From: Streptosporangiaceae bacterium | Lineage (GTDB): Bacteria; Actinomycetota; Actinomycetes; Streptosporangiales; Streptosporangiaceae | DNA length: 64,000 bases | NCBI GenBank assembly: GCA_019245115.1 | Contig: JAFARZ010000211.1 | Span: 36,688-100,687 of the forward strand | Direction of reading: 5' to 3' | Shown here: positions 20,833-47,152 of the stretch, piece after piece | Position numbering within the stretch: position 1 is the stretch's first letter | How the letters are laid out: each line of letters begins with the position of its first letter | The notes under the pieces: generated by a model | What the model was told of the DNA's origin: nothing | Databases searched by the model: none | What the model saw: the letters and a program-made list of their open reading frames with translations, nothing else | Made by a program: the position numbers and the translations under genes

Positions 20833-22313
20833 CCGAACCAGCGGTCGAGGCGGCCGGGATCCAGAAGCGGTTCGGCAGCACGCGCGCGCTGCGCGGCGTC
20901 GATCTCACCCTGGAGCCCGGCCGCTGCCTCGGCCTGATCGGCCGTAACGGGGCGGGGAAGTCCACCCTGGTCTCGATCCTGTCCGGCATCTACCCGCCGG
21001 ACGCCGGAGAAGTACGGCTGAACGCCCCGCTGGCCACCGTTTTCCAGCACTCGATGGTCGTGCCCGGCATGACCGTCGCGGAGAACGTGTTCCTCGGCCG
21101 GCAGCCCCGCCGCCGCTTCGGTGTCATCGACTGGCGCGCGATGCGGGAGCAGGCCCGGCAGGTGATGGCCGACTGGGGGTTCGACGTGGACGCCGGCACC
21201 CCGTCCGGGAACCTCACGGTGGAGCAGCGCCAGGTAGTGGAGATCGCCCGCGCGCTGGCGGCCGGCACGCGCTGCCTGCTGCTTGACGAGCCGACCGCCG
21301 CGCTGGAGCGCGGCGCGACCCAGCGCCTGTTCGAGCGCATCCGCCAGCTGCGGGCTCAGGAGGTCGCGATCTTGTACATCTCCCATCATCTGGAGGAGGT
21401 TTTCGAGATCTGCACCGACGTCGCGGTGCTCCGCGACGGGGAGAAGGTGCTGACCGCGCCAATGGCCGAGGTCAGCAAAGCTGAGCTGGTCACCGCCATG
21501 GTCGGAAAGCCTTACAACGAACGGTCTGTGGTTCCCCCTCCGCGACCCACCGCCGCCACCGGGGCGACGGTTCGCCCCGCGCTGACCGTGGACGGGATCA
21601 GCTTCGCGTCGCCGGGTGTCCTGCTCAGCGACGTGTCGCTGACCGTGCGACCCGGCGAGCGGGTCGGAGTCACCGGTTTGCGCGGTTCCGGGGCGACGAC
21701 GCTGGCCAGGATCGTGGCCGGGGCGACCGCGCCGGATGCCGGCGCCGTCCGGCTGGGGGGTCGCCCGCTCAAGCCCGGCGACCGGGCCGCGGCGCTGCGG
21801 GAAGGGATCGGTTACATACCGGAGGACCGGCAGGCGGATGGGTTCGTGCCGCTGCTCGGGTCGGCGGAGAACATCGCGATGACCGTCACCGACCGGATCG
21901 CGCGGGCTGGCTTCGTCGGTCCCAGGCGCCGGGAGAGGATGGCGGCGCCGCTGGCCCGCCGCCTGTCCCTGGTGGCGGCCGGTCTCGGCCAGCCGGTGCG
22001 GGAACTGTCCGGCGGGAACCAGCAGAAGGTGACGGTCGCCCGCGCGCTGGCCCGGGACCCGGTGCTGATCGTGGCCATCACCCCGACCCGGGGGGTGGAT
22101 GTGGCGTCCAAGGAACTGCTGCTGGCCGAGCTGGACCGGGTGACAAGGGAAACCGGGGCGAGCCTGCTGCTGGCCAGCGACGAGCTCGACGACCTGGTCA
22201 TCTGCGATCGCGTGGTGGTCCTGGTCCGCGGCGAGGTCTTCACCGAGTTCACCGATCCGCCGTTCGACCGCGAGGCGCTGATCGCGGCGACGGAAGGTAT
22301 GGGAGTTAAATGA
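20829..22313 (+). CDS. Sugar ABC transporter ATP-binding protein (duplicated ATPase)
   Basis: ATGA overlap with the binding-protein gene. First Walker A GRNGAGKST, LLLDEPTAAL, second signature LSGGNQQK. Confidence 0.95.
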   Translation: MTEPAVEAAGIQKRFGSTRALRGVDLTLEPGRCLGLIGRNGAGKSTLVSILSGIYPPDAGEVRLNAPLATVFQHSMVVPGMTVAENVFLGRQPRRRFGVIDWRAMREQARQVMADWGFDVDAGTPSGNLTVEQRQVVEIARALAAGTRCLLLDEPTAALERGATQRLFERIRQLRAQEVAILYISHHLEEVFEICTDVAVLRDGEKVLTAPMAEVSKAELVTAMVGKPYNERSVVPPPRPTAATGATVRPALTVDGISFASPGVLLSDVSLTVRPGERVGVTGLRGSGATTLARIVAGATAPDAGAVRLGGRPLKPGDRAAALREGIGYIPEDRQADGFVPLLGSAENIAMTVTDRIARAGFVGPRRRERMAAPLARRLSLVAAGLGQPVRELSGGNQQKVTVARALARDPVLIVAITPTRGVDVASKELLLAELDRVTRETGASLLLASDELDDLVICDRVVVLVRGEVFTEFTDPPFDREALIAATEGMGVK

Positions 22314-23407
22314 GCGAGCCAAAGGGGCGCGGCGTCGCCTGGGATGCGGAGGCGCGCGGAGAGCAGAGCACGAGCGACGAGGGAAGGCGAGGCCTCGAGG
22401 CGCCCCGGAGGCGAGCGGCAAGCACTGCGGCGATCAATTGGGTGCGCGAGGCCGCGCTGGTGCCGGTGCTGGCCGTGCTGCTGATCGTCGGCGCGGTGCT
22501 GAACAGCCACTTCCTGACCGTGTCGAACATGACCGGCATCGGGCAGCAGATCTCCGCCCTGGGTGTTGTGGTGGTGGGCGAGTCGCTGATCTTGCTGATC
22601 GGCGGTATGGACCTGTCGCTGGAGTCCACCTACGGGCTCGCGCCCATGGTGGCCGCGTGGCTGATCGTGCCGGTCGCCTCGTTCGGCAACGGCATGCTGC
22701 TCGGCCCCTATGTCGGCATCCTCATCCTGCTGGCGATCGGCGTCGCGGCCGGTTTCGCCAACGGCTTGCTGATCGTCAAGGGACGGCTGAACGGGTTCAT
22801 CGTCACGCTCGGCATGACGATCCTGCTGGCTGGCCTCCAGGACGGTATCGTCAAGGGCCAGGCGCCGTTCAACCTACCCAGCGCGTTCAGCTACCTGGGT
22901 TCGGCCAGCTTCGGCGCGTTCCCGGTGTCGCTGATCGTCACCGCGATCATCTTCATCGGCACCGGCCTGTTCCTGCGCTATCACCGCGTCGGCCGGGCGA
23001 TTTACGCGATAGGCGGCAACCGCGCGGCGGCCCGGGCCGCGGGTATCAAGGTGGACCGGATCCGGATCGGCGTCTACGTGGCCGGCAGCGTGCTGGCCGC
23101 GGTCGGTGGCCTGATGGAGGCCGGCCGGGTCTCGTCGGTCACTCCGCAGCAGGGGTATGGCGAGGGCATCATCTTCGCGGTGTTCGCGGCGGCCGTCATC
23201 GGCGGCGTGTCCCTCCAGGGCGGCCGTGGCAACATGGTGGGCGCGGCGTCCGGCGTGATCCTGCTTGGCCTGGTGCAGAACATCCTGGACCTGGAGAACG
23301 CGCCGAACTACTGGATCGACGCGATCAATGGCGGCGTGATCTTGTTCGCCCTGCTCCTGGCCCGCATCATAGGCGGCGAAGCGAGCGCGGAATTATGTGG
23401 GGGGTAA
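22310..23407 (+). CDS. Sugar ABC transporter permease (RbsC/AraH-like)
   Basis: ATGA overlap with the ATPase gene. 365 aa, polytopic, ending in a [13 protein letters not shown]-type motif. Confidence 0.9.
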
Positions 23408-26516: not shown

Positions 26517-27440
26517 ATGTTGGTCGACGCTCACCATCATGTGTGGGATCTCCGGGTCCGCGATCAGGACTGGATCGCCGGAGCCGAGTTGGCGCCGCTG
26601 CGCCGGAACTTCCTGGTCAGCGACTACGAACTGGTGGCCGCGGCGGCGGGCGTGACGGCGAGCGTGGTGGTGCAGACCGTCACCGTTCCCGGTGAAACTT
26701 CCGAACTGCTCGAGCTGGCTGATGCCAGTGCGCTGATCGCGGGCGTGGTCGGGTGGGTCGACCTGACCGCCGGTGATGTCGCCGATCGTCTAGCCGCGCT
26801 GCGCGCGCTGCCGGGAGGTTCGTGGCTGCGCGGCGTCCGCCACCAGGTGCAGAGCGAACCCGATCCCGGCTGGCTTATGCGCCCCGACGTCCTGCGCGGC
26901 CTGCGCGCCGTCGCCGCCGAAGGGCTGGTATATGACCTGGTCATCACGTCTGGCCAGTTGCCGGTCTCGGCGCGGGCCGCCAGCGCGGTGCCCGGACTGA
27001 CGTTCGTGCTCGATCACCTGGGTAAGCCGCCCATCGCCTCGGGTCAGATCGAGCCGTGGGCATCGGACCTGCGCCGTCTGGCCGCGCTGCCGAACACCGT
27101 GGCCAAACTGTCCGGCCTGGTCACCGAGGCTGACTGGAAACGCTGGCAGCGCGGCGACCTGCGCCCCTATGCCGAGGCGGCACTGGAGTCCTTCGGGCCT
27201 TCCCGGCTGATGTTCGGCTCCGACTGGCCGGTCTGCACGCTCGCCGCCAGCTACGACGACGTCCGGCGGGCCGCCCTCGACCTGACCGCCGCGCTGAGCC
27301 CCGCCGAACGCGACGCCCTGTTTCACGGCAGCGCCACACGTACCTACCGCCTCTCCCAGCCTTTACCCTCTCCCAGCCTTTCGCCTCTTCCAGAACGCCG
27401 GTCAGGTATCCGGCCGTCAATTTGTCGCTTTGTGCAGTGA
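26517..27440 (+). CDS. Amidohydrolase_2-family protein (candidate L-fucono-1,5-lactonase)
   Basis: Start MLVDAHHHVWDL (metal-binding HxH). FGSDWPV near the C-terminus. The Pro/Ser-rich tail may be a read-through extension. Confidence 0.85.
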   Translation: MLVDAHHHVWDLRVRDQDWIAGAELAPLRRNFLVSDYELVAAAAGVTASVVVQTVTVPGETSELLELADASALIAGVVGWVDLTAGDVADRLAALRALPGGSWLRGVRHQVQSEPDPGWLMRPDVLRGLRAVAAEGLVYDLVITSGQLPVSARAASAVPGLTFVLDHLGKPPIASGQIEPWASDLRRLAALPNTVAKLSGLVTEADWKRWQRGDLRPYAEAALESFGPSRLMFGSDWPVCTLAASYDDVRRAALDLTAALSPAERDALFHGSATRTYRLSQPLPSPSLSPLPERRSGIRPSICRFVQ

Positions 27441-27523
27441 CTTTTCCGTACCGTGGCGACATTTCACGATAACGTGCGTTCGCGGGTTTTTGGCAATTCC
27501 GTCTCCGCTGAGATGCCCAGCCC

Positions 27524-27682
27524 GGTGAACTTGCAAATATCGCCGCATAGCGGGCACCGGGCTGGGCATCTCGTGGAAGATCGGAGCCCTCCGGAAGAAA
27601 AGGTGCCGGAAACCAGCACCCTTTCCTCCGCGAGGCCCTTTTCTTCCACCTCGTCCACCGCAACCGCCACCCACATACAAAG
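27524..27682 (+). repeat. Structured intergenic repeat, copy A
   Basis: Aligns end to end with 31625-31798 (reverse strand) and 60998-61172. Core nested hairpin at 27575-27647. Confidence 0.75.
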
Positions 27683-28894: not shown

Positions 28895-30670
28895 TCACGG
28901 AAGCGTCGTCAGGTGGGGCGCCACCGTGCTGGCGAAGTTGTAGCCGTTGGACGCGTCCCAGTTGATGGACCACGTCATCACGCCGCGGATGCCCGGGTAG
29001 CTGCTGGATGGGACGAAGCTGCCGCAATTGGTTCGTGCGGCCAGGCAGTCCAGGGCCGCGTTGACCACCGAAGGCGACACGTAACCACTGCCGGCCGCCG
29101 AGGGGGAGGAGGGCAGCCCGAGGCCCACCTGGGAGGCCGAGAGCCCGCCCTGCAACTCGGTGCAGGCCAGCGCGGTCATGAAGTTCTCGGTGCCTTCGGA
29201 GTAGACGTTCCCGTCACAGCCGTTCATTGAGCCCGAGTTGTAGTACTGCGTGTTGATCATCGTGAGGATGGACTTGATGTTCAGCGCGAGCTGGAAGTAG
29301 TCGTTGCCGGTGGACTGCGTGTCCACGGTCTGCGGCGCCAGCGTGATGATCAGGCTGGAGCCCACGTCGCTTTCCAGCTGCTCCAGCGCTGACGCCATGA
29401 ACTGCGGGTTGACGCCGTTCTCCAGGTCGATGTCGACGCCGTTGAACCCGTACTGCTGAATGATCGAGTCCACGCTGCTGGCGAAGCTGGCGGCGCTGGT
29501 GGCGTCGTTGACGCTGATCGTGCCGTTCTGGCCGCCGACCGACAGGATGACCTTCTGGCCACGGGCCTGGAGCGTGTGGATGTCGCTGATGAACTGCTGC
29601 TGGGTGTAGCCGCCGAGCGCCGAGGACAGGCCGGAGTCGAGGCTGAACGTGACCTGCCCCGGCGTGCTGTCCGAATCGCCGAACGCGACCGCGATCAGGT
29701 TGTAGCTGGCCGGCGCGTCGGCCAGGGTCAGCGGCTGGGCGCCGTTGGTGAAGTCCTGCCAGTAACCCATCAGCAGATGCGCGGGGAGCCCGCTCCCACC
29801 GCCGCCCCCGCCACCCGACGCGGTGGTGGCGTTGACCTGGCTGGACTGCGGGGACTGGCCGGCCGGGTTGTAGGCGGCCACGGTGAAGGTGTAGGTGGTC
29901 GATGCGGCGAGGCCGGTCACCGTGTCACTGGTTCCGGTCACGTTGGCCACCTGGGAACCATTGGAGTACACGAGGTAGCCGGTGACGGTCCCGGACGGAG
30001 CGGTCCAGGACAGCGACACCGACGACGACGTGGTACCGGTGACCGTCAGGCCGGTCGGGGCCGCTGGCGCGGTCCCGCCGCCTCCGCCGCCGTTGCCCGC
30101 CGGTCCGGTCAGCGACAGGTTACCGGCGTAGAAGGTCGGCTGGGCGTACCAGCCATGGACGTACACGGTCACGCTGGTCGTGCTGGCACCGGTGGTGAAG
30201 CTGGTGGACAGCTGCGTCCACGAAGTGGCCGAAGGCGTCCAGGCGTCGGTGTCGCTGCTCCCGGTTCCGCTGTCACCGAGGAAGACGTAGTCGCCTTGCA
30301 CCAAGCCGGTCAGCGTATAGGAAGAATCGGGCTGAACGCTGACGACCTGGCTGCACTGCGCGTCGTCGCTGCTGGTCGGCGTCCCGGCCAGCGCGTGCGA
30401 CGAACCCGGGGCGACCGGCGAGGACACCACCGTGTCGCCGGACGAGCACGTCCACCCGGCGGTGCTTCCGGTCGCGAAGTCGCCGTTGGTGAGCAAGCTG
30501 GACTGCGCCGACGCGGCGGGCGCCGTGAACCCCACGGCCAACCCCACCGCCAGCAACGCGGCCGGAACAAGCGACCCCGCCAGCCGCAGCCGCCGGCGGG
30601 CGCGGAACGGGCGCGAGAGAACCGCTCGAAGGCGGCCATTACTCAGGCGGGAACGGGACGGATCTCTCAC
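28895..30670 (-). CDS. Secreted GH18 chitinase with N-terminal carbohydrate-binding module and Fn3 domain
   Basis: Signal peptide ending ...APAASAQS, CBM-like beta-sandwich, Fn3 (APTGLTVTGTTSSSVSLSWTAP) and catalytic FNGVDIDLE (DxDxE). Confidence 0.9.
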   Translation of the reverse strand: MRDPSRSRLSNGRLRAVLSRPFRARRRLRLAGSLVPAALLAVGLAVGFTAPAASAQSSLLTNGDFATGSTAGWTCSSGDTVVSSPVAPGSSHALAGTPTSSDDAQCSQVVSVQPDSSYTLTGLVQGDYVFLGDSGTGSSDTDAWTPSATSWTQLSTSFTTGASTTSVTVYVHGWYAQPTFYAGNLSLTGPAGNGGGGGGTAPAAPTGLTVTGTTSSSVSLSWTAPSGTVTGYLVYSNGSQVANVTGTSDTVTGLAASTTYTFTVAAYNPAGQSPQSSQVNATTASGGGGGGGSGLPAHLLMGYWQDFTNGAQPLTLADAPASYNLIAVAFGDSDSTPGQVTFSLDSGLSSALGGYTQQQFISDIHTLQARGQKVILSVGGQNGTISVNDATSAASFASSVDSIIQQYGFNGVDIDLENGVNPQFMASALEQLESDVGSSLIITLAPQTVDTQSTGNDYFQLALNIKSILTMINTQYYNSGSMNGCDGNVYSEGTENFMTALACTELQGGLSASQVGLGLPSSPSAAGSGYVSPSVVNAALDCLAARTNCGSFVPSSSYPGIRGVMTWSINWDASNGYNFASTVAPHLTTLP

Positions 30671-30782
30671 ATGACCTCCAGCGCGGTGAGGCCGCTCCCC
30701 AATTAATAGTAAAGTTTCTTAAAAGTTAATGCATAGCGTAACTCCAGCACCGCCCCCCGTCAATCCCTCCCCGTCGGCCCGC

Positions 30783-30912
30783 CGCAACGGCAGGGCCCAC
30801 CGGCCGCCCGGCAACAGCAGGCCCACCGGCCGCCCGGCAACAGCACACCCACCGGCGGCGCGGCAACAGCAGGCCCACCGGCGGCGCGGCAACGGCAAGG
30901 GCCGTCGGCTAC
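30783..30912. repeat. About five tandem copies of a 26-bp unit CGGCAACAGCAGGCCCACCGGCSGCS
   Basis: Units begin at 30783, 30809, 30835, 30861 and 30887. The period is not a multiple of 3. Lies 110-240 nt upstream of the chitinase start. Confidence 0.8.
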
Positions 30913-31173
30913 TACCGGAAGTCCGCGCGCAGTGCCCTGGGGACTAATCCAGAAATGTCGGGTATCGCCGACGAGGCGTAGCTGATGATCCGTAAATAGG
31001 TGCGGAGCGAGACTCTTGTGTTAGGCGTGGTGCTACCTACACGCCGCACAGCGTCGGGGGCGTCGGCGGCTATTCACCAAGCGTCGTGGGCTTGTACCAG
31101 CCCGGCAGGTCCAGGCGCAGGGAGCCCAGGTACACATCTTGCCACGCTCATCCCGCCTGCATCAGGGAGCGCG

Positions 31174-31227
31174 CGGATGGATGTGGCAGCGACCCGGTTA
31201 TAACCGGGTCGCTGCCACATCCATCCG
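31174..31227. repeat. 54-bp perfect palindrome
   Basis: cGGATGGATGTGGCAGCGACCCGGTTA|TAACCGGGTCGCTGCCACATCCATCCg, with no mismatch and no spacer. Confidence 0.9.
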
Positions 31228-31300
31228 ACAAGGATCCGAATTTGGATCGCTGACGCTACCTGAATAGTCGCCACGACGAGGGTGCAATACGCGAGGCGTA

Positions 31301-31367
31301 TCGATGGCGCCATCGATGTCGTTACGGCGGACAATTTCGGGCGCCATCGACATGGATGGCGCCATCG
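31301..31367. repeat. Cluster of GATGGCGCCATC palindromes
   Basis: TCGATGGCGCCATCGA at 31301-31316, GGCGCCATCGA at 31340-31350 and GATGGCGCCATC at 31355-31366. Confidence 0.65.
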
Positions 31368-31419
31368 TCGCATGTGCGGAGGAACGCAGCCGGAAGCATG
31401 CATCGCGGGAGCGGCGGAG

Positions 31420-31620
31420 TCGCGGGCGGCCGCGGGCCTGCGACCCGGGTGCCGGCCTGCCGGCCCGACCCGGCGCTGGCACGCGGACCCGGCCGCGGGC
31501 CTACGGACCCGGGTGCGCCCTGGGACCCGGGCGCCGGCCTGCGGACCCGGGTGCCGGGCTGCCGGCCCCGACCCGGGTGCCGGGCTGCCGGCCCGACTGG
31601 GGCGCCGGGCTGCTGCTGGC
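31420..31620. repeat. Degenerate GC-rich tandem array of about eight GACCCGGG-initiated 18-26-bp units
   Basis: Unit starts at 31442, 31467, 31486, 31506, 31524, 31544, 31570 and 31595. Irregular period, non-coding. Confidence 0.7.
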
Positions 31621-31624
31621 GTCC

Positions 31625-31798
31625 GGTTTGCTGGGACGTGACCGTTATGTGTACGGCGGTTGTGCCGGAAGATGCGGAAGAAAGGGGCCTCGTGGAAAGT
31701 TGGGCGCTGGTTTCCAGCACCTTTTTCTCCAAGGGGCTCCTTTTTTCCATGAGATGGCGGGCGGGTGCCCCGTTGTGCGGTGATATGCGTAGCTCACC
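31625..31798 (-). repeat. Structured intergenic repeat, copy B (reverse orientation)
   Basis: The reverse complement aligns with copies A and C. Core hairpin at 31667-31748. Confidence 0.75.
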
Positions 31799-32008
31799 GT
31801 ATCCCTTCGCATACCCAGTGACATAAGCTGACCGGGGGCGCGGAGCGTGCGAGGGTCGCTGCAGGTTACACGGGACCGGGCGAGGGGCGTGTGGCGGGTC
31901 GGCTGCCGGGACTGTATGTGTGACTGCGGATGATCTCCCGTGCTGTTGACGGCGATCGTGATCTGTGCTTACTTACAGAGTAGGGTCGATACGAACAGGA
32001 CAGGTCTA

Positions 32009-32212
32009 ATGGCTACGAGTAATGACCCCCTGCTGGAGACGCGTTTCTTCACCGTGGGCGAGATCGCCAGGATCGCACGGGTATCGAAGATGACCGTGTA
32101 CCGCGAAGTTCACGCGGGGCGGCTTGACTCGGTGCGCATCGGACGATCATTCCGCATACCAGAGGAATCAGTACGTCGGTGGCTGGGCGGCCCGCTCGCT
32201 GCCACGGCCTGA
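32009..32212 (+). CDS. Small excisionase-family (MerR-like HTH) DNA-binding protein
   Basis: 67 aa. FFTVGEIARIARVSKMTVYREVHAGRLDSVRIGRSFRIPEESVRRWL. No integrase nearby. Confidence 0.75.
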   Translation: MATSNDPLLETRFFTVGEIARIARVSKMTVYREVHAGRLDSVRIGRSFRIPEESVRRWLGGPLAATA

Positions 32213-33079
32213 CTGAGCTGACGCTGAACCAGGAACCGCGGCCAGCGCCAGGGGGAACCGCTCCCGCACCGTCGCCGCGGTCCGATCTGGCGACGCTTCC
32301 CATACGTCGGCGTTGAAGATCTCGACTTCGATGTAACCGTCATATCCGGCCGCCGTCACGGCGGCCGATATCGGCGGGAAGTCGATCACGCCGTCGCCCA
32401 CATGCCCCCGGCCCAGAAGCACGTCGGCGGGCAGCGGCAGCACCCAGTCGCACACCTGGTAACTGACGATCCGTCCGGCCGCGCGGGCGATGTCATCCAG
32501 CACCCGAGCGTCCCACCAGACGTGATACGTGTCCACGACGACGCCCACCGCGTCCGCGGGGAACCGCAGCGCGAGTTCCACCGCCTCGCCCAGCGAGCTG
32601 ATCACGCACCGGTCGGCGCAGAACATGGGATGCAGGGCCTCGATCCCCAGCCGGACCCCCAGTCGCTGCGCGTCCGGCACCAGGTCGCCCATCGCGTCGG
32701 CGATCAGGCGCCGGGCCAGGGCTAGATCGTGGCATCCGGTCGGCAGGCCACCGGACACCAGGACGAGCGTGTCAGCGCCGAGTTCGGCCGCTTCGGCGAT
32801 GGCGGCGCGGTTGTCCGCCAGCGCGGCGGCGCGCTCTCGCGGATCGATGTGCGTGAAGAACCCGCCCCGGCACAGGCTTGACACGTAGAGCCCGGCGGCG
32901 CGTACCGCGGCCGCCGACTCGGCCAGGCCGAACTCGGCGACCCGGTCCCGCCACAGTCCGATCGCCGGGATGCCGTGACGGACACACAGGTCCGCTGTCT
33001 GCGCCACCGTCAGCTTCTTGACCGTCGCCTGGTTCAGCGACAGCCGGCGCAGGCCGAGACCGTCCTCCTCCCAAGCCAT
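32168..33079 (-). CDS. Sugar phosphate isomerase/epimerase (xylose-isomerase-like TIM barrel)
   Basis: Start MAWEEDGLGLRRLSLNQATV. ATGA overlap with the DUF993 stop. LGIEALHP and IEVEIFN motifs. Confidence 0.85.
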   Translation of the reverse strand: MAWEEDGLGLRRLSLNQATVKKLTVAQTADLCVRHGIPAIGLWRDRVAEFGLAESAAAVRAAGLYVSSLCRGGFFTHIDPRERAAALADNRAAIAEAAELGADTLVLVSGGLPTGCHDLALARRLIADAMGDLVPDAQRLGVRLGIEALHPMFCADRCVISSLGEAVELALRFPADAVGVVVDTYHVWWDARVLDDIARAAGRIVSYQVCDWVLPLPADVLLGRGHVGDGVIDFPPISAAVTAAGYDGYIEVEIFNADVWEASPDRTAATVRERFPLALAAVPGSASAQSGRGSERAAQPPTY

Positions 33080-34248
33080 CACGACAGACCTCTCAGCAGC
33101 CCGGTCATCCGGTCGACGGCCAATCCGGGATCGGCCAGCGCACCCGCCTCGGCGGCCAGCTCGAACAGCCGGATCAGATGACCGGCGGGCCGCGCCCGTT
33201 CCAGCCCGCCCACCATGGCGAAATGCGGCTGCAGTCCGTTCAGCCACGCGAGAAACGCCACGCCGGTCTTGTAGTAGGGCGTCGGCTCCTCGAAGATCAG
33301 CCTGCTGAGCGGAACTGTCGGCCCGATGGCGGCGTCGTAGCCGGCCACGTCGTCGGCGTCCAGCGCTCGCAGCGCCGCGGCGGCCGGGCGGGTGATGGCG
33401 GCGAAGGCGCCGAGCAGGGCGTCGCTGTGCCCGGTCGCGTCCCCGCGAATCAGGTCGGCGTAGTTGAAGTCGTCGCCGGTGTAGAGCCGCACACCCGGCG
33501 GCAGCCGCCGCCGCAGCGAGACCTCCTGGGCGGCGTCCAGCACCGACAGCTTGATGCCGTCGATCTTTTCCCCGGCGTGGCTGGCCAGCTCCAGCACCGT
33601 GCGGGACGCGGTATCGAAATCCACGCCACCCCAGTAGCCGCGCAGGGCCGGGTCGAACGCCTCGCCGAGCCAGTGCAGGATCACCGGCCGGTCGGCCTGC
33701 TTCAGCAGGGTGCGGTACACCTCGATGTAGTCGTTCGGCCCGGTTGCGTCCGCGGCGAGCGCCCGGCTCGCCATCAAGATCACGTCGGCCCCTTGCGACT
33801 GCACGAACTCCATCTGCTCGGTGTACGCGCGGATGATCTCGCCGATGGAGTAACCGCCGTCCGCGAGCAGGTGATCGGTGCCGGCCCCGCAGGCGAGGCT
33901 CGCGTAGCGGCCCTCCGCGCGGCGCTGCGCCGCCAGCGCCGACGATCGCGTGATCAGCTCGCGGGCCTGCCGCCATTTCAGCCCCATGCCGCGCTGCGCC
34001 GTGTCCATCGCCTCGGCCACGCCGAACCCGTGCGACCACAGGTGATCACGGAAGCCCAGTGTGGCCTCCCAGTCGACTGTGTTGACTTTGCCTGGGCCTG
34101 CGGCCGCGGCGCCTTCGGCCGGCGTGGCGGCCACGTGGGCCGCGGCGTAGACCCGCCGGGAGGCCGGCGGCGGATAGCCGGCCGCCCAGCCCGGCAGGCT
34201 GATCTCGGTCGGTTCCGGTCGTCCCGGCAGCTGGATACGAGCGGTCAT
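33079..34248 (-). CDS. DUF993 / dihydrodipicolinate-synthase-like family protein (family name recalled from memory)
   Basis: 389-aa TIM-barrel-like sequence (VDWEATLGFRDHLWSHGFGVAEAMDTAQRGMGL...). ATGA overlap with the upstream oxidoreductase. Confidence 0.75.
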   Translation of the reverse strand: MTARIQLPGRPEPTEISLPGWAAGYPPPASRRVYAAAHVAATPAEGAAAAGPGKVNTVDWEATLGFRDHLWSHGFGVAEAMDTAQRGMGLKWRQARELITRSSALAAQRRAEGRYASLACGAGTDHLLADGGYSIGEIIRAYTEQMEFVQSQGADVILMASRALAADATGPNDYIEVYRTLLKQADRPVILHWLGEAFDPALRGYWGGVDFDTASRTVLELASHAGEKIDGIKLSVLDAAQEVSLRRRLPPGVRLYTGDDFNYADLIRGDATGHSDALLGAFAAITRPAAAALRALDADDVAGYDAAIGPTVPLSRLIFEEPTPYYKTGVAFLAWLNGLQPHFAMVGGLERARPAGHLIRLFELAAEAGALADPGLAVDRMTGLLRGLS

Positions 34249-47093: not shown

Positions 47094-47152
47094 GGGGATG
47101 GTTGGCGCAACGTGCCCCTTGGGTGGGGGTGGTTGGCGCAACGTACCCCTTG
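47094..47152. repeat. Two direct copies (26/28 identical, period 31) of GGGGRTGGTTGGCGCAACGTRCCCCTTG
   Basis: 47094-47121 and 47125-47152. The 10-mer TTGGCGCAAC recurs at 61330-61339. Confidence 0.6.

Follow-up and report, generated by a model that had tools for sequence, protein, structure and literature searches.

A probable mosaic of MITE-like and palindromic repeats between the divergent promoters of a chitinase gene and a small helix-turn-helix gene in a Streptosporangiaceae bacterium

Prokaryotic miniature inverted-repeat transposable elements (MITEs) include, for example, the Correia elements of Neisseria, RUP of Streptococcus pneumoniae and ERIC/IRU of enterobacteria (reviewed in PMC3184786). 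Bacterial interspersed mosaic elements (BIMEs) are built from repetitive extragenic palindromic (REP) sequences, which are also the basis of REPIN/RAYT systems (PMC2817692, PMC3116915, PMC3733652); a REP is a short (20-40 bp) imperfect palindrome with a GTAG or CGTC tag at one end (PMC3733652). Here we describe a locus with features of both types. It lies in a 64,000-nt window of a 152-kb contig from the draft genome of a Streptosporangiaceae bacterium (9.5 Mb in 444 contigs), and is a 1338-bp gap (30671-32008) between a chitinase gene, whose GTG start is at 30670 on the minus strand, and a small helix-turn-helix (HTH) gene, whose ATG start is at 32009. We consider it highly likely that this gap is a lineage-specific mosaic of selfish, MITE-like or palindromic repeats and two minisatellites, lodged between two conserved promoters. 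By analogy, the mosaic would be a BIME-like, new member of the MITE/BIME-type repeat class, the closest known systems being prokaryotic MITEs and the REP/BIME mosaics of proteobacteria.

When the gap was compared by BLAST with the genome that it comes from (G000), three multi-copy blocks were returned (31069-31267, 31290-31373 and 31615-31800), the remainder being unique by this search. Read from the chitinase side, the gap contains the native chitinase control region, a 26-bp tandem array, motif D, module X joined to the MITE-like element A, which carries a 54-bp palindrome, element B, a GC-rich minisatellite, a copy of element C, and the native HTH upstream region. The five repeat systems that a preliminary description of this DNA had picked out are all present where it placed them. 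Its statement that the gap has no credible open reading frame (ORF) also stands: there are 11 ORFs of 55-159 aa, all of which overlap repeats and none of which has a significant Pfam match (the best, to DUF5551, has E = 0.04, under the curated cut-off), and no transposase relic was found by Pfam among the 11. The same description regarded short spacers as typical of the window, which is roughly right (median ~50 bp, from a crude gene call based on third-codon-position GC), so that 1338 bp is unusual. The three AT-richer patches that it listed are present but mild (GC of 0.59-0.62 vs ~0.70 elsewhere).

Close relatives retain both ends of the gap and lack the middle 1.0-1.1 kb, and we therefore take the middle to be a recent, lineage-specific addition. 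In one relative (L108; L-numbers denote fetched loci or contigs of relatives), both gap ends are present, with ~160 bp in place of 30745-31871 and a spacer of ~370 bp. In another (L106, 91% identical), 30771 is joined to 31792 via 83 bp. The chitinase-HTH spacers in close relatives measure ~370, ~400 and 767 bp, the last on a 72-kb Joint Genome Institute (JGI) contig, where the two genes are adjacent and divergent. Contigs from three soil/mine metagenomes match up to 30745-30768 and again from 31864; between these positions, only copies of the palindrome or of the element C hairpin were found, and these have other flanks. The preliminary description had proposed a check for a strain-specific insertion, and the outcome is positive, since the block missing from close relatives is built of genome-wide dispersed repeats. 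It had also stated that its reading would fail if the region hid a recognizable gene such as a transposase, or if conservation and transcription were completely absent; conservation is indeed absent from the middle block, and no recognizable transposase relic was found there.

In the two same-genus genomes (G001 and G002) the chitinase spacers are 184 bp and 409 bp, respectively, and the chitinase is not beside the HTH gene. Collinearity with these genomes stops at 27335 and 32254, and the 4.9 kb between is arranged differently there. This segment holds a copy of element C (27445-27677), an unnamed ORF, the chitinase gene, the gap and the HTH gene, with copies of element C in inverted orientation flanking the chitinase. 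A simple “empty site” is not readable from synteny with G001 and G002 and was discarded as a line of evidence, because those drafts do not connect the two flanks. The G002 chitinase spacer (L103:3450-3510, G002:C277, where C-numbers denote contigs) has its own 52-bp perfect palindrome, ATTATTGCGGACACTTACCCCCCCGATCCGGGGGGGTAAGTGTCCGCAATAAT, which is unrelated to the 54-bp palindrome described here, along with a 25-bp array.

Element A (31066-31271, plus strand) is ~200-206 bp long and has 20-nt terminal inverted repeats at 31066-31085 and 31252-31271. There are ~19-20 copies on different contigs of the genome, with 82-92% identity and sharp borders. Alignment of 14 copies, together with the DNA fold, gives the termini as GTAGCTATTCAssWAGCGTC (20 nt), and when the element is folded as single-stranded DNA its ends pair and its centre forms the palindrome (z = -9.7). 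Half of the 14 other copies have 8-bp direct target duplications, of which three are perfect (C353, C332 and C145) and four have one mismatch. The element has no coding capacity, as its overlapping ORFs are without Pfam match and its size is under ~500 bp. The sharp borders, inverted termini, target duplications and end-pairing fold lead us to class element A as a MITE, and we refer to it as MITE A; judged by its sequence, it has all of the hallmarks of the class except an identified autonomous partner and, for the gap copy, a clean target duplication. It is like described MITEs in being short, non-coding, multi-copy and intergenic, with ~20-nt terminal inverted repeats and, in half of the other copies, target duplications of a fixed length (8 bp). 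It is unlike them in those same two respects, in carrying a 54-bp perfect palindrome that is also dispersed on its own, and in that the families are restricted to this lineage.

Module X (30985-31065, plus strand; ~80-95 bp) directly precedes MITE A. It has five loci (~4 copies by coverage), at all of which it abuts MITE A, at either end.

The 54-bp palindrome (31174-31227) consists of 27+27 nt with no spacer and 100% complementarity. It occurs both inside MITE A and by itself as a dispersed element, with 46-58 loci in the genome and sharp ends (CGGATG...CATCCG), and its arms often change in step from copy to copy. A search of 60 other genomes of the family, allowing up to three mismatches, gave no copy; its expansion therefore appears to be recent and lineage-specific. 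Copies also occur on differently flanked contigs in two of the soil runs (X2 and X3).

Element B (31290-31373) contains two exact GATGGCGCCATC boxes (31303-31314 and 31355-31366) and a half site (31340-31349), with the boxes lying within a 20-nt inverted repeat (31302-31321 and 31348-31367). The genome has 37-39 loci of this element, with 74-88% identity, each having two such boxes. The 12-mer itself occurs 67 times vs ~1 expected, and this excess is accounted for by the copies of element B.

Element C is the most abundant of the families, with 415 distinct loci detected by an nhmmer profile made from 55 copies; these loci range from hairpin-only pieces of 60-90 nt up to ~300 profile positions. 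The gap copy (31602-31801, plus strand), which is copy B of the structured repeat in the preliminary description, is truncated and diverged: it covers profile positions 26-226 of 325, with a central hairpin at ~31676-31750, and is without the right third. Its identity to other near-full-length copies is 72-77% (up to 81-86% over shorter matches), and from this and its partial coverage we conclude that it is a decayed fragment. A young subfamily of element C, with copies of ~400 bp, ~110-nt inverted arms and 90-98% identity, is found at many contig ends, and in its size and long inverted arms is again like described MITEs. Many contigs end inside element C or MITE A (e.g., C144, C65, C291, C427, C371 and C251), and these repeats are a main cause of the fragmentation of the assembly.

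Motif D (30940-30965, plus strand) is a short terminal-type motif of the form GGAC-AATCC-GAAATGTCGGG, with ~60-100 loci in the genome. Most of its occurrences (80/101) are within 300 bp of a match to the hairpin element C. We considered motif D as an obligate terminus of element C and rejected this, because it is near an end in only 16 of 49 full-length copies.

The two tandem arrays differ from these modules in being local. The first (30775-30897) has 4.7 copies of a 26-bp unit with 85% matches, as found by Tandem Repeats Finder (TRF) and repeat finding; there is no other copy in the genome, and it is absent from the relatives L106 and L108. The second (31427-31613) is a GC-rich, GACCCGGG-type minisatellite with a period of 20/26 and 69-87% matches, for which only weak low-complexity matches were obtained elsewhere in the genome; GACCCGGG is not enriched genome-wide (628 found vs ~816 expected). 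A separate 31-bp motif, GGGGATGGTTGGCGCAACGTACCCC..., forms a two-copy tandem at 47094-47152 of the window and a further two-copy tandem in the chitinase-HTH spacer of the 91%-identical relative (L106:85-147).

The dispersed modules share locations far more often than expected by chance. When loci within 400 bp were merged, 469 clusters were obtained, and the expectation was calculated from random placement. Two-family clusters number 90 vs 10.5 expected, and clusters of three or more families number 11 vs 0.13 expected. The gap is the sole cluster among the 469 with all five dispersed modules. Nested or target-specific insertion of mobile elements into repeats, such as that of insertion sequences (ISs) into REP sequences, is a known phenomenon, and MITE A resembles it: the copies at C353:30298 and C332:42571 are inside B elements, with target duplications (CTGGAACC and CCGGAACC) that consist of B sequence, and those at C199, C312 and C291 are 15-65 bp from motif D, as in the window. 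MITE A thus has an apparent preference for landing in other repeats, judging from ~7 of 19 copies. We attribute the pile-up of modules to nested or targeted insertion, combined with the insertion tolerance of a spacer between outward-facing promoters.

In these respects the locus is like the BIME/REP systems: unrelated short modules share extragenic mosaics beyond chance (101 multi-family clusters vs ~11 expected), and palindromic units (the 54-bp palindrome and element B) are present in tens to hundreds of copies in similar locations. Unlike a REP, the palindrome is 54 bp long and starts with CGGATG rather than GTAG or CGTC, and only the MITE A termini start with GTAG. Unlike BIMEs, there is no regular array of REPs in alternating orientation in 30771-31863. 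A search for the Y1 (RAYT) transposase, PF01797, gave no match in this incomplete draft, whereas the same search has matches in 6 of 14 control genomes.

Both gap ends, unlike the middle, are conserved. The chitinase control region (30671-30770, minus strand) comprises a GGAGG ribosome-binding site (RBS), a palindromic operator (30701-30729), a putative -10 element (TACGCT, 30735-30740), a 17-nt spacer and a putative -35 element (TTGACG, 30758-30763). A sigma-70 consensus scan found no promoter, and the promoters are named here by conservation. This layout, including the operator, is kept upstream of the chitinase orthologues at L007, L033, L009, L012, L013 and L008 and in G001 and G002, and on the chitinase side the similarity to relatives in other metagenomes ends at 30745-30771. 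The operator consensus is about CTAATAGGAAAGTTTCCTATTAG, located between the -10 element and the RBS at at least eight other Streptosporangiaceae loci; it is listed also at L098 and L103. It is unlike the DasR box of Streptomyces. Two further sites of the CTAATAGGAAAGTTTCCTATTAG type are present in this genome (C76:10207 and C406:1672), and the predicted operator may define a small regulon of some regulator.

At the other end, the HTH upstream region (31864-32008, plus strand) has TTGACG at 31946-31951 with the AT-rich TTACTTACAGAGTAGGGT downstream. Approximately 135-145 bp upstream of the HTH start are almost invariant in eight related contigs, in which the flanks are 83-92% identical. Similarity to the relatives in the three soil/mine runs (X2, X3 and X9) resumes at 31864, and that to G001 begins at 31936. 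The HTH protein (32009-32212, plus strand; 67 aa; HTH_17, PF12728, E = 2.4e-12), whose gene borders the gap on the right, has one and the same sequence (100% identity) on 11 public contigs. It has the appearance of a chromosomal regulator under strong constraint and not of an excisionase from a mobile element. The proposal in the preliminary description of a large regulatory region is partly right, in that the two gap ends are genuine regulatory DNA with the conserved chitinase promoter/operator and the conserved HTH upstream region.

The left border of the gap is a GH18 chitinase gene (28895-30670, minus strand) with Pfam domains CBM_4_9, fn3 and Glyco_hydro_18. Its orthologues in Streptosporangiaceae genomes are 68-83% identical, and the nearest chitinase loci are titled as Streptosporangiaceae metagenome-assembled genomes. 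Beyond the HTH gene is a gene for a xylose-isomerase-like TIM barrel protein of the AP_endonuc_2 family (32168-33079, minus strand), followed by a DUF993 gene; in its longest call, the AP_endonuc_2 gene is convergent with the HTH gene and their 3' ends overlap by ~45 bp. Elsewhere in the window (22311-22417) there is a dispersed intergenic repeat of about 105 bp, many copies of which, with 72-81% identity, are found in G001, G002 and G006 (a genome of another genus), and in this it is unlike the families in the gap.

From these comparisons, the gap is most probably an ordinary divergent promoter spacer, which measures ~370-400 bp in two close relatives. Its functional parts would be only the ~100 bp of chitinase promoter with operator and the ~145 bp of HTH upstream region, and the ~1.1 kb between them would be functionless filler, gained by the insertion of non-autonomous mobile or repeat elements. 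The inserted pieces would be motif D, module X fused to the 206-bp MITE A with its palindrome, the two-box element B and the decayed fragment of element C, and the two local minisatellites would have grown by slippage-type expansion. The elements would cluster by landing in or beside one another. A transposition origin for the individual pieces is suggested by the inverted ends and target duplications of other copies, rather than by the copy in the gap.

Several points weigh against this account. The gap copy of MITE A is not flanked by a clean target duplication. Module X and MITE A together are bracketed by a direct repeat of 8 bp, CGACGAGG (30969-30976 and 31274-31281), which is offset by 1-2 nt from the ends and whose left copy may be part of a shared module; we therefore rejected it as a clean target duplication. 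No autonomous IS or transposase with MITE A ends, as a matching pair at kilobase spacing, was found in the draft, which is 90.6% complete and in which repeats are often unassembled, and for this reason we infer the mobility of the MITE rather than show it. The arm-compensating changes in the palindrome could reflect selection for the hairpin, which would allow a host function. The draft is of limited quality (besides its incompleteness, contamination is 6.2%), and the sole run labelled RNA behaves like DNA.

An alternative is that the block, or some of its modules, has taken on a regulatory or architectural role. A dimeric DNA-binding protein or a nucleoid protein might bind the GATGGCGCCATC boxes or the palindrome, the block might be an insulator between divergent promoters, or the 26-bp array might act as iterons for a chitinase activator. 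The ~60-fold over-representation of GATGGCGCCATC would be in keeping with this idea, although that excess is fully explained by the B copies, and the box is absent from the 110 other loci retrieved, among them the regions upstream of the HTH gene in relatives. As the box is absent from all of the relatives' loci, we rejected it as an operator of the HTH protein. Likewise, arrays with a period of 25-27 bp lie just upstream of the chitinase promoter in three of nine orthologous loci (30775-30897 here, L103:3587-3680 and L012:3664-3730), but their unit sequences are unrelated, and the genome abounds in tandem arrays (663 have a TRF score of at least 100). The coincidence could be due to chance in array-rich genomes or could be a recurrent feature. 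The paired changes that keep the palindrome arms complementary are also in favor of co-option. Against it, the close relatives that are without the block keep both promoters and an identical HTH protein, and overall we regard this alternative as quite improbable.

A second alternative is that the block is the source of one or more small RNAs or contains a transcription terminator, the candidates being the long hairpin of element C and the palindrome of MITE A. The predicted folds are strong (besides the value for MITE A as DNA, z = -3.4 and -3.9 for the two strands of the element C copy), and there is one terminator-like match inside the C hairpin. Such folds follow from the inverted repeats in the DNA, however, and are of similar strength on the two strands, and the number of terminators is not above that in shuffled sequences. 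The C copy is a truncated relic, as its divergence from near-full-length copies indicates, and with divergent genes on either side and the conserved HTH promoter downstream of it, a terminator at this place would have nothing to terminate. The preliminary description had raised non-coding RNAs as a possibility, and known families are not in evidence: a search with Rfam 15 gave zero matches at the gathering score in the whole window, and in the gap, at E up to 5, only sub-threshold matches to generic hairpins (miRNA precursors). An RNA or terminator is accordingly very doubtful.

It is harder still to credit that the gap is an assembly artefact, i.e., a chimera of two loci joined through high-copy repeats during assembly from a metagenome. 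The sequencing run that matches best comes from a rock metagenome, and the gap is tiled by four independent Logan contigs of the source run (30073-30877, 30864-31098, 31110-31202 and 31199-32459). No single one of them crosses MITE A, the breaks being at 30864-30877, 31068-31098 and 31197-31202, and the chitinase is not beside the HTH gene in G001 and G002. Summed k-mer depth is 300-1065 over MITE A and the palindrome vs 13-17 for unique sequence (~20-70 times unique depth for MITE A). Even so, the unique parts on both sides match in depth (13.4-17.2), a copy-specific piece (31110-31202, one difference, depth 12) bridges the interior, and the MITE copies differ by 8-18%, so that they are resolvable by long k-mers. 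The Logan contig for 31199-32459 (1261 nt) covers the GC-rich minisatellite and has zero differences from the window. A chimeric join is made unlikely because the chitinase-HTH adjacency is found independently on the 72-kb JGI contig and in L108, and because a contig from another assembly (L107) reproduces 31476-33500 at 99.85%.

The origin-like or partition-like site of the preliminary description, or a site-specific recombination site, can essentially be dismissed. All that speaks for it is the general resemblance of a long, non-coding stretch with iterations and palindromes to such sites. Against it, the gap has no match to a DnaA box (one mismatch allowed) or parS (three mismatches allowed), with window counts at or below the shuffle expectation, and the neighbours examined are ordinary chromosomal sugar-metabolism genes, with no gene for dnaA, dnaN, parAB, an integrase or a recombinase among them. 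The repeats also belong to genome-wide families instead of being locus-specific iterons, and close relatives lack the block. The observation made in the preliminary description is real, and its interpretation is supported only in part, the exotic readings being unsupported.

With the gap read as a mosaic of inserted repeats between two native promoters, a false lead is removed: the locus has no origin or partition site, and it hides neither a gene nor a known RNA. For annotation, the five modules amount to on the order of 1% of the genome, where they break the assembly and yield spurious ORF calls. A more far-reaching idea, which we think unlikely, is that the modules form an undescribed, RAYT-independent, BIME-like system of the Streptosporangiaceae, in which one MITE targets the termini of other repeats and the mosaics are rearrangement hot spots, or else that the palindromes with their conserved arms and the GATGGCGCCATC boxes have been domesticated as protein-binding sites. 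Such hot spots would bear on the gene order: left of 32254 and right of 27335 it is not that of G001 and G002, and neither the chitinase nor the HTH gene is at this position in those genomes. Three things are left that are useful for biology: the chitinase operator, which is conserved, the small HTH regulator, which is invariant, and a MITE that apparently prefers to insert into other repeats. In a compact spacer between conserved divergent promoters, selfish DNA would have pushed the two promoters 1 kb apart within a species-level time span.

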